Shown: positions 28,288 through 32,000, counted from the stretch's first letter. The stretch: 32,000 bases of DNA from Erysipelothrix larvae (GCF_001545095.1 NZ_CP013213.1:1920001-1952000), one strand, 5' to 3'. Made by a program: numbers and translations. The notes: generated by a model not told the origin, from the letters alone.

Positions 28288-29613
28288 ATGAAAGGGGAAC
28301 GTTGGGCACACGAATTCATGATACCCAACACACATTTTATGTTTAGCAAACTCGAAGAAGTACTCGTACCGATTACCCAAAAAGTTGCGACCAATCGATA
28401 TTTAGTCGCGATTAGAGATACCTTGGTATCAACCATTCCAATTACCATGATCAGTAGTATTGCACTGCTTATCATTTACTTACCGTGGCCACAAGCCTAT
28501 GTAGACTTTATGGCAAAAGCGGATACACTTAAAAATATCTTATCCCAATTTAATACCATGGGGATGGGGCTCTTGTCGATTTATGTTGCCTTTGTTCTTG
28601 GGAGTAAACTGGCTCATGGTTATGGCATTGATGAAACATCAGGTGGTCTAACCTCCCTATTCTCATTCTTAATGACCATCACTACGGTGAGCGAAGATGG
28701 CATGGTTGGTCTTAGAACTACCTATCTGAGTGCTCAAGGGATGTTTACAGCGTTGATTATTGGCGTCGTATCGGTTGAGATTATGCGCTTTACCATTAAG
28801 CATAACTTCACCATTAAGATGCCCGATTCTGTTCCATCAAGCATCACAAAGACCTTTGAATCCATTATCCCAATCGCACTTTCTACAATTCTTATCAATA
28901 TCGTGGTCAATGGACTGGGCTTTAACATTAATGAAGTGATTAACAGCGTAGTCACACCAATCTTTAGAATGTCTGTGAACTCAATCTGGTTCCCATTAGC
29001 TTATGTCATTCTCACTGCAATTATGTGGTTTTTTGGGATTCATCCAGGTGTCTTATCCGCAATCGCAACACCTGTTTGGCTCCTAAATGCAGAAGCAAAT
29101 ATGACTGCCATGGCTGCAGGGCTTCCGATTCCTTACATTGGTGTAAAACCCTTTATCTTCAGCTTCATTTATTTTGGTGGTGGCGGTGGAACCTTACCGC
29201 TTGTAATTCACATGATTCGTTCAAAGTCTGAACAAATGAAAGCATTGGGTAAACTCAGCTTAGCGCCTGGACTTTTCAATATTAACGAACCTGTTCTCTT
29301 TGGTGTTCCAATTGTACTGAATCCAACACTTCTCGTGCCGTTTGTAGGCAGTATGGTTGTGACAGTCATTGTGACATATGTCGCATTTTATACCGGAATT
29401 GTTCCAGGTATGGGAAATCCTTTAGCGGCAGAATGGACGGTACCATCACTGATTGCTGGTGCAATCGTCACATCCAGTTGGAAAGGGTCTGCACTGGTTG
29501 TCGTGAACTTTATCCTGTCTTACTTTATTTACTTACCATTCTTTAAAGTCTATGAAAAGCAATTACTTGCTCAAGAAGAAGGAGATGCAAATGGCACTCA
29601 AGAAACAGCCTAA
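28288..29613 (+). CDS. PTS lactose/cellobiose-family EIIC permease (start uncertain: 28288, 28318 or 28339)
   Basis: ...[16 protein letters not shown] and ...[19 protein letters not shown] are EIIC motifs. Alignment with the other EIIC favours Met at 28339 (MFSKLEEVL...). No convincing SD precedes any candidate start. Confidence 0.85.
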
Positions 29614-31033
29614 TACCTTCCCAAAGGATTTCTTATGGGGGGGTGCAACAGCTGCAAACCAACTTGAAGGGGGATTTGGTGAAGATGGTAAAGGCATCAG
29701 CCTTGCGGATCTCAACGAGTTCAGACCTGACATTGATATTTCTAAAAAATCAAACAAAGAAATGACCACCGCGCAAATTGAGGCAGCACTCAATGATCAA
29801 GAAGGCATTTATCCTAAACGCTATGGCATAGATTTTGTCCACACCTACAAACAGGACATCGAACTGCTTGCTGGCATGGGGCTTAAAAGCTTGCGCGTCT
29901 CGATTGCTTGGAGTCGCATCTTTCCTAATGGGGATGATGCTGTTCCAAATGAGCGTGGACTTCAATACTATGATGATCTTTTTGATACATTAATCAAATT
30001 CAATATACAACCCCTTGTGACCTTGTCACACTATGAAATGCCGCTAAACCTTGCATTGAAGTACAATGGTTGGGCAAACCGACAACTGATTGACTTCTTT
30101 GTACGATTTGCGGAAGTCGTGATGCGACGCTATAAGGATAAGGTCAAGCTTTGGATTCCAGTGAACCAAATTAACTTATACCATCATGAATCATTTAACC
30201 ATCTGGGCATCCCCGAAGATCGGGTTGAAAACTTACTTGAAGCCAAATATCAAGGTTTGCATCACGAGATGGTTGCCAGTGCAAAAATAAAGAAACTGGC
30301 TGAGTCAATTAATCCTGAGTTTAAAGTGGGTGTCATGTTGATTGGTGGCGTTGCTTATCCAGCAACTACCTTACCACAGGATGTCCTTGCGACAGAACAA
30401 AGAAACCAACGTGATTTGTTTATCTCTGATGTTTTAATTCGTGGTGAATACCCTGGATATATGATCCGTTACTTTGAAGAAAACAACATCCATCTTGATG
30501 TGAGCGATGAGGATCTCATGGATTTAAAAGCAGGCTGTGACTTCTTCTCATTCTCATATTATTACACCAAAGTTTCCGATGCTACCGTCGCAAACCAACC
30601 AAAATCCTCATACATTAACCCATTATTAGAAGCCAGTGATTGGGGATGGACCATTGATCCATTGGGGTTACGGTTTATGCTCAATGTATATTATGATCGC
30701 TATCAACTTCCAATTTACATTACCGAAAGTGGAATTGGACTTTATGATACACTCAATGCGGATCATACCATTGATGATCCACAACGGATTGAATACTATC
30801 GTACGCACATCCAACAAATTCTTGAAGCCATCAAGGATGGTGTTGATGTAAGAGGCTATTATCCATGGGGACCTATTGATTTAGTCAGTTGTTCATCCTC
30901 TGAAATGAGCAAGCGCTATGGCTTTATCTATGTTGACCTTGATGATTATGGCAAGGGAACTGGAAATCGATACAAGAAGAAGAGTTACGAATGGTATAAA
31001 AATGTCATTAAGTCAAACGGTTCAAGTTTGTAG
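29591..31033 (+). CDS. GH1 family 6-phospho-beta-glycosidase-like enzyme, acid/base Glu replaced by Gln
   Basis: Start chosen at [28 protein letters not shown], with SD GAAGGAG 6 nt upstream; the ORF is open from 29552. It is colinear with BglA-type enzymes: [16 protein letters not shown] corresponds to TFNEIN, the nucleophile is ITESG, and the phosphate-binding [10 protein letters not shown] tail is retained. Confidence 0.9.
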
Positions 31034-31051
31034 AAATAGTATAGGTGAACA

Positions 31052-32000
31052 ATGAAAAAACTAAACGATATATGTAAAACAATTGATGCTTTTCCAGATG
31101 GTTTCTTATGGGGAGGGGCAACAGCCGCTAACCAATTGGAAGGGGGCTTTAAAGAAGAGGGTAAAGGATTAAGCGTCGCGGACATTAATGAATTTAAAGA
31201 TCATGATGACCTTGAATCTAAATCAAATACTGAAATGAGCATGAAACAAATTACAGCCCTATTGAATGACAAAGATGCAATCTTTCCTAAAAGGACTTCA
31301 ATTGAGTTTTATCATTCATATAAAGAAGATTTGAAGTTACTTGCAGGCATGGGGTTGAAAAGCCTTCGTGTATCAATCGCATGGACACGTATTTTCCCAA
31401 ACGGGGATGAAGACCACCCCAACCAAGCAGGGCTGCGCTTTTATGATAACCTGTTTGATGAGATGCTTCGTCTAGGCATTCAACCAATGGTGACCTTATC
31501 ACATTATGAAATGCCGCTACACCTAGCAACCCACTATAATGGATGGGTGAATCGTAAATTAATTGATTTCTTTGTACGATTTGCTGAGGTTGTGATGAGA
31601 CGCTATAAAGATAAAGTCACGCTTTGGATTCCTGTGAACCAAATCAATCTATTCGATCATGAATCGTTTAATCACCTAGGAATTCCAAGTGATCGCGTGG
31701 ATAATCTTGAACAAGCAAAGTTTCAAGGGTTGCACCATGAAATTGTCGCCAGCGCACGGATAAAAAAACTTGCGAAAACCATTAATCCTAAGTTTCAAGT
31801 CGGTGTGATGAACTCATCCCTCATTGCTTATCCAAAGACGTCAAAACCAGAAGATGTGTTTACCGCGATCCAACAAGGACAGATCTCACTTTATATATCA
31901 GATGTCTTAGCATTTGGAGCGTATCCCCAATACATGCTTCGCTATTTTAAGGAACATCACATTGACATCCTGATTGAACCTTCCGATTTAGAAGACATTA
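31052..32000 (+). CDS. Second GH1 6-phospho-beta-glycosidase-like paralog (5' partial, runs off the window), also with NQIN
   Basis: Manual translation from the ATG at 31052 (SD AGGTGA) gives [32 protein letters not shown]...[21 protein letters not shown]... The frame is open to position 32000. It is not in the ORF track because it has no stop in the window. Confidence 0.85.

Follow-up and report, generated by a model that had tools for sequence, protein, structure and literature searches.

The window analysed here, a stretch of 32,000 nucleotides from Erysipelothrix larvae (GCF_001545095.1, NZ_CP013213.1:1920001-1952000), carries two tandem genes for glycoside hydrolase family 1 (GH1) phospho-β-glycosidases, and in both of them a glutamine replaces the catalytic acid/base glutamate. 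In GH1, as in the whole of clan GH-A, this glutamate on strand β4 counts as a catalytic residue that defines the group, and plant myrosinase is the textbook exception. The two genes belong to a large, monophyletic, conserved and hitherto uncharacterised bacterial subfamily, which we call the Gln clade. The novelty lies in a clade of GH1 phospho-β-glycosidases without the canonical acid/base, and not in a new kind of system. In full-text searches of the literature, we found no description of a bacterial GH1 clade with Gln at this position, and no solved structure of any Gln-clade member in the PDB. The two genes and the relevant codons are located in the window as follows, with LpPgb1, the 6-phospho-β-glucosidase of L. 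plantarum, as reference.

29591..31033, plus strand: GH1 copy 1, 480 amino acids, Gln-clade member; ATG at 29591, stop codon at 31031-31033; matches Pfam GH1; 100% identical to a protein from E. larvae
30167..30169, plus strand: CAA, Gln193 of copy 1, at the acid/base column (equivalent to Glu180 of LpPgb1), within WIPVNQIN
30188..30190, plus strand: GAA, Glu200 of copy 1, seven residues after Gln193; clade-specific, candidate substitute acid/base
30563..30565, plus strand: TAC, Tyr325 of copy 1, after the SYY motif; Met or Ser in canonical enzymes
30725..30727, plus strand: GAA, Glu379, the catalytic nucleophile of copy 1, within YITESG; the Asn-to-Ser change next to the Glu is unusual
30890..30919, plus strand: L8a loop of copy 1, C434-S-S-S-E-M-S-K-R-Y443, from column counts, with roles from LpPgb1 (PMC3605045)
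31052..32000, plus strand: GH1 copy 2, Gln-clade member; ATG at 31052; first 316 of 483 amino acids, the window ending within the gene
31640..31642, plus strand: CAA, Gln at the acid/base column of copy 2, within WIPVNQIN
31661..31663, plus strand: GAA, Glu seven residues after the Gln of copy 2, within DHESFN

A look-up with the exact sequence of copy 1 returned nothing. The full length of copy 2 and the end of the operon were taken from contig L007 of a sister strain, whose full-length protein (P0004, 483 amino acids) is 99% identical to the visible part of copy 2.

An earlier note on this DNA had read WIPVNQIN with a CAA codon in both copies, and in copy 1 a GAA nucleophile codon in ITESG together with an SKRYG tail; the codons are where it had placed them, and MSKRYG is present. 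The assignment of the column also stood. Both proteins match the Pfam GH1 family (PF00232) far above its gathering cutoff of 22.6 bits, copy 1 at 403 and the partial copy 2 at 240 bits. In phmmer alignments, copy 1 was ~45-50% identical to the canonical 6-phospho-β-glucosidases from B. licheniformis (6WGD), S. pneumoniae (BglA-2, 4IPL), L. plantarum (LpPgb1, 3QOM) and S. mutans (SmBgl, 3PN8/4F79, aligned as 3PN8), without gaps from at least 80 residues upstream through the motif. WIPVNQIN fell on W(M/L)TFNE(I/V)N, and YITESG on FIVENG. The aligned Glu is the acid/base at the end of β4 (Glu180 in LpPgb1, Glu176 in SmBgl), and the nucleophile is Glu375 (Michalska et al., PMC3605045). Where GH1 enzymes carry their acid/base Glu (TxNEP or NEIN, end of β4), copy 1 has Gln193, whereas the nucleophile Glu of the family motif I/VTENG, at the end of β7, is retained as Glu379. 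The AlphaFold2 model of copy 1 (mean confidence, pLDDT, 85.7) adopts the expected (β/α)8 barrel, and Foldseek superposed it on 6WGD, 3QOM, 2XHY (E. coli BglA) and 3PN8 with TM-scores of 0.85-0.92. The replacement of the acid/base Glu by Gln in both GH1 genes is thus confirmed. A Glu in the HHE/DHE stretch, which the earlier note had placed four residues downstream, is there as well, at seven residues after the Gln (Glu200). The nucleophile motif of P0004 is YIAENG. The Ser that follows the nucleophile in copy 1 (Ser380, 30728-30730, giving ITESG instead of ITENG) is common to the sister strain. A single sequence among the 53 clade members has Ser there, as does a single one among the 99 canonical relatives; P0002, 78% identical, has Asn.

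The substitution extends well beyond E. larvae. Asn-Gln stands at the acid/base column in every one of the best 120 relatives of copy 1 (58-100% identity), and 119 have ESFN just downstream. Their hosts are Bacillus, Paenibacillus, Enterococcus, Clostridium, Dielma, Enterocloster, Streptococcus suis, Breznakia and one enterobacterium. A genome scan added a second group at greater distance, whose proteins read E(P/S)F(N/L) and come from Listeria, Lactiplantibacillus and Ornithinibacillus, as well as one member from Chloroflexi. When a Listeria-type protein, a diverged member, served as the query, Gln was found in 120 of the 120 best relatives, which include proteins from L. monocytogenes (a cluster of 2,249 member sequences), L. 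ivanovii, E. hirae, E. faecalis, Weissella, Tetragenococcus, Brevibacillus and Carnobacterium. Representatives at 50% identity were aligned with MAFFT for motif calling, and the full signature (Asn-Gln, the downstream Glu, Tyr or Phe at 325 and the nucleophile Glu) was present in 255 of 402 aligned sequences.

Neighbour-joining trees were built from 149 non-redundant sequences, 40 of them with Gln. These 40 formed a single split with a bootstrap of 194/200 (97%), which answers in the affirmative whether the NQIN enzymes form a clade, a point raised in the earlier note. With the signature columns deleted, the split was recovered in 174 of 200 replicates (87%). Its members come from Bacilli, Clostridia, Erysipelotrichia and a few other phyla. 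The position of the clade within the radiation of bacterial 6-phospho-β-glucosidases means that its origin is independent of plant myrosinase. One metagenomic clade member, P0037 (a cluster of 279 sequences), reads IIADNG, with Asp for the nucleophile Glu, and is the sole such case seen. A further clade member, P0294, is 78% identical to the Listeria-type enzyme and is deposited as a protein of the moth Spodoptera exigua; it is probably bacterial contamination of the insect assembly.

The rest of the active site was compared by column counts in 53 non-redundant clade members and 99 canonical relatives. Residues were mapped onto LpPgb1, and their roles there (−1 subsite, phosphate cradle, packing of Ala431 on glucose O4) were taken from the published structure (PMC3605045). 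The correspondences for copy 1 are listed below, LpPgb1 residues in brackets.

Gln24 (Gln22): −1 subsite, unchanged
His147 (His134): −1 subsite, unchanged
Asn192 (Asn179): −1 subsite, unchanged
Trp426 (Trp423): −1 subsite, unchanged
Glu379 (Glu375): nucleophile, unchanged
Ser435, Lys441, Tyr443 (Ser432, Lys438, Tyr440): 6-phosphate cradle, unchanged
Ser433 (position 430): Ser and not a phosphomimetic Glu, unchanged
Glu438 (Gln/Glu435): extra residue of the glucosidase-type L8a loop, unchanged
Leu196 (Asn183): replaces the aglycone-hydrogen-bonding Asn, clade-specific
Glu200, Ser201, Asn203: replace residues of the β4-α4 loop, clade-specific
Glu, Gln or Asp at position 275 (Arg267): replaces the aglycone-binding Arg, clade-specific

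On the sugar side, the pocket is essentially canonical. The nucleophile Glu is present in 52 of 53 clade members, for Ser433, Ser435, Lys441 and Tyr443 the counts range from 51 to 53, and Tyr324 is conserved as well. The L8a loop, with Glu438 present in gap-free alignments, is one residue longer than that of 6-phospho-β-galactosidases. By contrast, four changes co-vary with the Gln, namely the altered aglycone contacts listed above and substitutions at three further positions. The Glu200 position is Glu in 51/53 members (96%), compared to 7/99 canonical relatives (7%), and Tyr325 is found in 52/53 members (98%) but in 1% of the canonical relatives. At position 434, where the canonical O4-proximal residue is Ala431, 51 of 53 members (96%) have Cys, whereas canonical relatives have Ala in 48/99 and Cys in 6/99. 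In short, the clade shares with the canonical enzymes 45-50% identity, the fold (TM ~0.9), the link to the phosphotransferase system (PTS), the nucleophile, the −1 subsite, the Ser/Lys/Tyr phosphate cradle and the long L8a loop. It differs from them by Gln for the acid/base Glu, Cys for Ala431, Leu and Glu/Gln/Asp for Asn183 and Arg267, an extra Glu at +7 and a Tyr after SYY. All four NCBIfam models of 6-phospho-β-glucosidase subfamilies score copy 1 below their curated cutoffs (the best, NF007154, at 512.9 bits against 624), which explains why NCBI names the protein only "glycoside hydrolase family 1 protein".

The Gln has been retained under selection. In 26 distinct loci, its codon is CAA in 18 and CAG in 8, and that of the downstream Glu is GAA in 16 and GAG in 10. 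As both synonymous codons are in use in each case, the two residues have been held through synonymous turnover. A Glu codon is one nucleotide away from that of Gln, yet Glu never occurs at the acid/base column in the clade. Between the window and the sister strain, we counted 10 synonymous and 2 non-synonymous differences in copy 1, 7 and 3 in copy 2, and 7 and 0 in the EIIC permease gene that precedes them. Both GH1 copies are under purifying selection. They are 65% identical to each other, with a non-synonymous divergence (dN) of 0.27 and a saturated synonymous divergence (dS), so that the tandem duplication is old, with both copies kept; their aglycone preferences are probably different. 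The earlier note had regarded the shared substitution as selected and not as decay. With a clade-invariant Gln, CAA/CAG turnover and mostly synonymous strain differences, the case is now stronger than it had claimed.

The GH1 genes close an operon whose upstream part is laid out in the window as follows.

27155..27946, minus strand: gene for an RpiR-family regulator, 263 amino acids (Pfam HTH_6, E=1e-12), divergent from the EIIC-GH1-GH1 operon
27947..28287, no strand: intergenic region between the divergent RpiR and EIIC genes, as read from the sequence; no promoter assigned
28288..29613, plus strand: PTS EIIC permease of the lactose/cellobiose family, 441 amino acids (Pfam PTS_EIIC, 159 bits)

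The EIIC scored 332 bits with the lacE subfamily model TIGR00410 (cutoff 236), and its gene overlaps the start of copy 1 by 23 nucleotides. Contig L007 contains the whole operon, with convergent genes for Fur and a P-type ATPase after copy 2. The locus contains no IIA or IIB gene. The intergenic region 27947..28287 has no match to the catabolite-responsive element (cre), and in a scan with consensus promoters, sites were no more numerous there than in shuffled sequence. Directly upstream of the RpiR gene (24854-26853, plus strand), we observed genes for a PGM/PMM-family mutase, closest to archaeal-type GlmM with a score under the cutoff, and a HAD-IA hydrolase with weak similarity to glucose-1-phosphatase and β-phosphoglucomutase.

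Across 26 clade loci, inspected with flanks of up to 8-10 kb on each side, the recurrent neighbours were EIIC (21 loci), IIA (20), IIB (18) and a Mga/PRD/EIIA2 regulator of ~640 amino acids (20), most commonly in the order IIB-IIC-IIA-GH1-regulator. An extra HPr occurred at 5 loci, a ~540-amino-acid protein at 3, and an RpiR-like neighbour at only 3. The operon described in the earlier note, with EIIC and an RpiR regulator, thus holds for E. larvae, where RpiR is divergent and EIIC overlaps copy 1, but RpiR belongs to a minority of the clade, most cassettes being IIB-IIC-IIA-GH1 with PRD/Mga. A lactose/cellobiose-family EIIC flanks nearly all Gln loci, but of the 55 canonical loci that the same scan covered, only 3 have one. 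The flanks of the 26 loci contained no second GH1, and no other enzyme family recurred beside the Gln-type GH1, although other glycosidase families were not screened for systematically. Twenty flanking proteins from ten loci, when scanned, belonged to unrelated housekeeping and transport functions, with no recurrent glycanase, kinase or deacetylase; we therefore rejected inference of the substrate from neighbouring genes.

The E. larvae layout is matched by Longibaculum muris (L018), with a divergent RpiR gene, an orphan EIIC and GH1. The two EIICs are 51% identical, whereas identity to EIICs of the usual cassettes is 27-32%. A single EIIC lineage for E. larvae and the usual cassettes was rejected on this basis, and a shared, transporter-defined substrate across the clade cannot in consequence be assumed. 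In L. monocytogenes, IIB, IIC and IIA lie upstream and a PRD regulator downstream of the GH1 gene, all between genes for an aldehyde dehydrogenase and an ABC-F protein. This order matches lmo0913-lmo0919, and the member is very likely lmo0917. The lmo0917 transcript is induced in soil extract (PMC3179493), and the gene is part of the "lactose-type" PTS lmo0914-0917 (PMC12616503). The literature on lmo0917 yielded expression data only, and no biochemistry.

Individual cassettes show further features. An exporter-like or small membrane gene lies directly 3′ of the Gln-type GH1 at several loci, namely EamA (L010, 9565-10422; L012, 9476-10303) and DUF6198 (L005, 9438-10055; also L017 and L034); these neighbours may export the released aglycone. 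L011, L012 and L013 have their own HPr paralog and a ~540-amino-acid gene, about the size of Enzyme I, beside the GH1, and may be nearly self-contained PTS units if that gene encodes Enzyme I. In E. faecalis, an insertion that separates recA from rny consists of an IIB-IIC-IIA-GH1(Gln)-regulator cassette (L088, 5098-10437); only one contig carried it, and it may be strain-variable.

We consider it highly probable that the Gln clade is a selected subfamily with catalytic activity, as predicted from its conservation. A phospho-sugar importer without a working hydrolase would be pointless or toxic, which argues for a functional GH1. With less assurance, though still on the favourable side, we propose the full reading that the clade comprises functional PTS-coupled GH1 6-phospho-β-glycosidases in which the acid/base role has moved off β4 or has become dispensable. 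In E. larvae, the EIIC would import and 6-phosphorylate a β-glycoside, with IIA and IIB presumably encoded elsewhere. Each GH1 would then hold the 6-phospho-sugar in the −1 subsite and phosphate cradle, which residue conservation shows to be essentially canonical, and the retained Glu379 would attack C1 to give a covalent glycosyl-enzyme. Gln can neither donate nor accept a proton, so either another group acts as the acid/base or the leaving group needs no protonation. If the former, protonation of the leaving group and activation of water would most likely fall to Glu200, perhaps with help from Tyr325; if the latter, assistance would be required only at the second step. Gln193 itself would merely hydrogen-bond to the glycosidic oxygen or the attacking water, like Gln187 of myrosinase, a residue with an active hydrogen-bonding role. 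That the clade residue is Gln without exception, and never Ala, Gly or Ser, suggests by analogy such a role here.

Glu200 is the best candidate for a replacement acid/base because it co-varies almost perfectly with the Gln (96% vs 7%), and because its loop touches the aglycone in LpPgb1 and SmBgl, at three residues after the catalytic position. Moreover, it is in register with Arg194 of myrosinase (WLTINQLYSVPTR, confirmed in 1MYR), so its side chain is plausibly within reach of the reaction centre. Arg194 presumably lines the site for aglycone, sulfate and ascorbate, and a built-in Glu200 carboxylate would do what bound ascorbate does in myrosinase. We put this assignment forward tentatively, as a possibility that falls somewhat short of even. 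Several observations weigh against it and the reading built on it. The 191-200 loop is the lowest-confidence core part of the AlphaFold2 model (pLDDT ~80). The 7% of canonical enzymes with Glu at the 200 position keep their β4 Glu as well, e.g. NEINATLHESFT in Vibrio, so the residue may have a purely binding role, and the divergent clade members from Pelolinea, P0121 and P0160 lack Glu200. To our knowledge, a relocated acid/base has not been described in GH1 or elsewhere in clan GH-A, and the full-text literature yielded no biochemistry for any Gln-clade member.

Among the alternatives, the one that fares best is that the enzymes are specialists for activated aglycones, i.e. thio-, aryl- or acyl-6-phospho-β-glycosides whose leaving group departs unprotonated, with Glu200 and Tyr325 binding the aglycone or acting as a second-step base. 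We regard it as rather unlikely when taken alone; it overlaps with the reading preferred above and does not exclude it. Myrosinase is typified by Gln at the acid/base column (TINQ, confirmed in 1MYR), and Burmeister et al., in 1997 and 2000, reportedly described its mechanism with this residue. The aglycone-side residues are remodelled in the clade, its hosts are soil, plant, gut and insect-gut Bacillota exposed to plant glycosides, and the exporter-like EamA and DUF6198 genes could remove a toxic aglycone. However, no co-localised gene indicates any particular aglycone. Glucosinolates, suggested as possible substrates in the earlier note, fare worse. The position of Arg194 is a near-invariant Glu (51/53) and that of Arg267 is Glu, Gln or Asp, so the pocket is acidic and not sulfate-binding, and plant-style glucosinolate recognition is unlikely. 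The bacterial GH1 genes tied to glucosinolate use are also canonical relatives of bglA and ascB (PMC8660893, PMC9440883). Aryl, acyl, thio or cationic aglycones are possible, and the neighbourhoods do not discriminate between them. Of what the earlier note had inferred, the plant-style link therefore falls, while a non-standard mechanism, or action on an unusual substrate, is the most reasonable reading of the Gln-type enzymes.

It is improbable that the clade has left hydrolysis altogether, either with a glycosyl-enzyme resolved by phosphate (giving β-glucose-1,6-bisphosphate), a sugar or a thiol acceptor, or as a pseudo-enzyme that binds phospho-sugars. Precedents exist, as retaining glycosidases with engineered acid/base mutations act as thioglycoligases and, in a GH3 phosphorylase, the anionic acid/base has been replaced, and the mutase and HAD hydrolase genes just upstream in E. 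larvae could be taken as a hint of phosphorolysis. We rejected this hint, since none of the other 25 loci examined has the pair. The PTS cassette contains no GH1 besides the Gln-type one, and no further enzyme recurs in it, which argues for a catabolic hydrolase, and the strict conservation of the nucleophile speaks against a pure binding protein.

Post-translational deamidation of Gln to Glu, which would restore a canonical enzyme, is very improbable. Asn/Gln deamidation has been detected by mass spectrometry in two canonical 6-phospho-β-glucosidases, albeit mostly at surface residues, and its relevance is unclear (PMC3605045). We observed no conserved deamidase gene nearby, and the direct Glu codon, one nucleotide off, was never found in the clade. 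The idea of decaying pseudogenes or inactive relics, which the lost catalytic residue and the unusual Ser after the nucleophile of copy 1 might suggest, is effectively refuted by intact reading frames in both copies, purifying selection, an invariant Gln held across a deep clade through synonymous turnover, the conservation of all other active-site residues, the tree, and the transcriptional regulation of the Listeria ortholog.

The clade resembles plant myrosinase (Sinapis alba MA1, 1MYR/1E4M) in its GH1 fold, the natural Gln in an N-Q motif (Gln187 in myrosinase) and the retained nucleophile. The substrates of myrosinase, however, are glucosinolates without a phosphate, whereas the clade has Ser433 and the Lys441/Tyr443 6-phosphate cradle in place of a phosphomimetic Glu. 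At seven residues past the Gln, myrosinase carries Arg194 and 51 of 53 clade members carry Glu; as a base, myrosinase borrows ascorbate. The same Glu-to-Gln change at the same position is found in the engineered crystallographic mutants Gan1D-E170Q and BglA-E166Q. Such acid/base mutants are used because the change cripples hydrolysis of unactivated substrates. In the clade, by contrast, the change arose naturally and long ago, selection maintains it, and compensating substitutions go with it. In layout, the E. larvae operon resembles the gen locus of E. faecalis (genR for the regulator, genB for an orphan EIIC, genA for a 6-phospho-β-glucosidase), with a divergent RpiR gene, an EIIC without IIA/IIB and then GH1, but it has two GH1 genes. 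The genR regulator is said to be of the RpiR type in the 2019 work of Grand et al. GenB uses the EIIA of another PTS (PMC11976118), and the locus serves gentiobiose and β-1,6-oligosaccharides.

The same exception as in myrosinase has thus arisen independently and been kept in thousands of bacterial genomes, in operons for sugar uptake that are otherwise unremarkable and belong to soil, gut and pathogenic Bacillota. Automatic annotation calls these proteins generic GH1, or 6-phospho-β-glucosidase or β-glucosidase, and the latter names are probably wrong in mechanism or substrate. The clade may represent a natural, ancient and widespread retaining family without a β4 acid/base, either with the role relocated to Glu200 or as the missing PTS-coupled phospho-thioglycosidases or acyl-glycosidases of Bacillota, including Listeria and Enterococcus; we entertain this view seriously while leaning slightly away from it. 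Its chemistry, once known, could show that retaining glycosidases can be built in a second way. The clade could also supply natural thioglycoligase-like scaffolds, give a function to orphan PTS operons such as lmo0914-0918, and offer a test for dedicated gut-Bacillota enzymes that act on dietary thio-, aryl- or acyl-glycosides.

We also noted two features elsewhere in the window. A second lactose/cellobiose-type EIIC gene (16404-17759, minus strand) adjoins a DUF3284 gene (region 15900-17843). A perfect cre match, TGAAAACGCTAACA, lies just upstream of it at 17830-17843, whereas the EIIC of the GH1 operon has none. Finally, a unit of a DUF6431 open reading frame and an ISL3 transposase gene occurs twice on the plus strand (2506-4585 and 9523-11602), with identical Pfam scans. 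The two units bracket a sortase gene and genes for surface-protein-like products (4794-9044, minus strand), and the whole has the look of a composite transposon.

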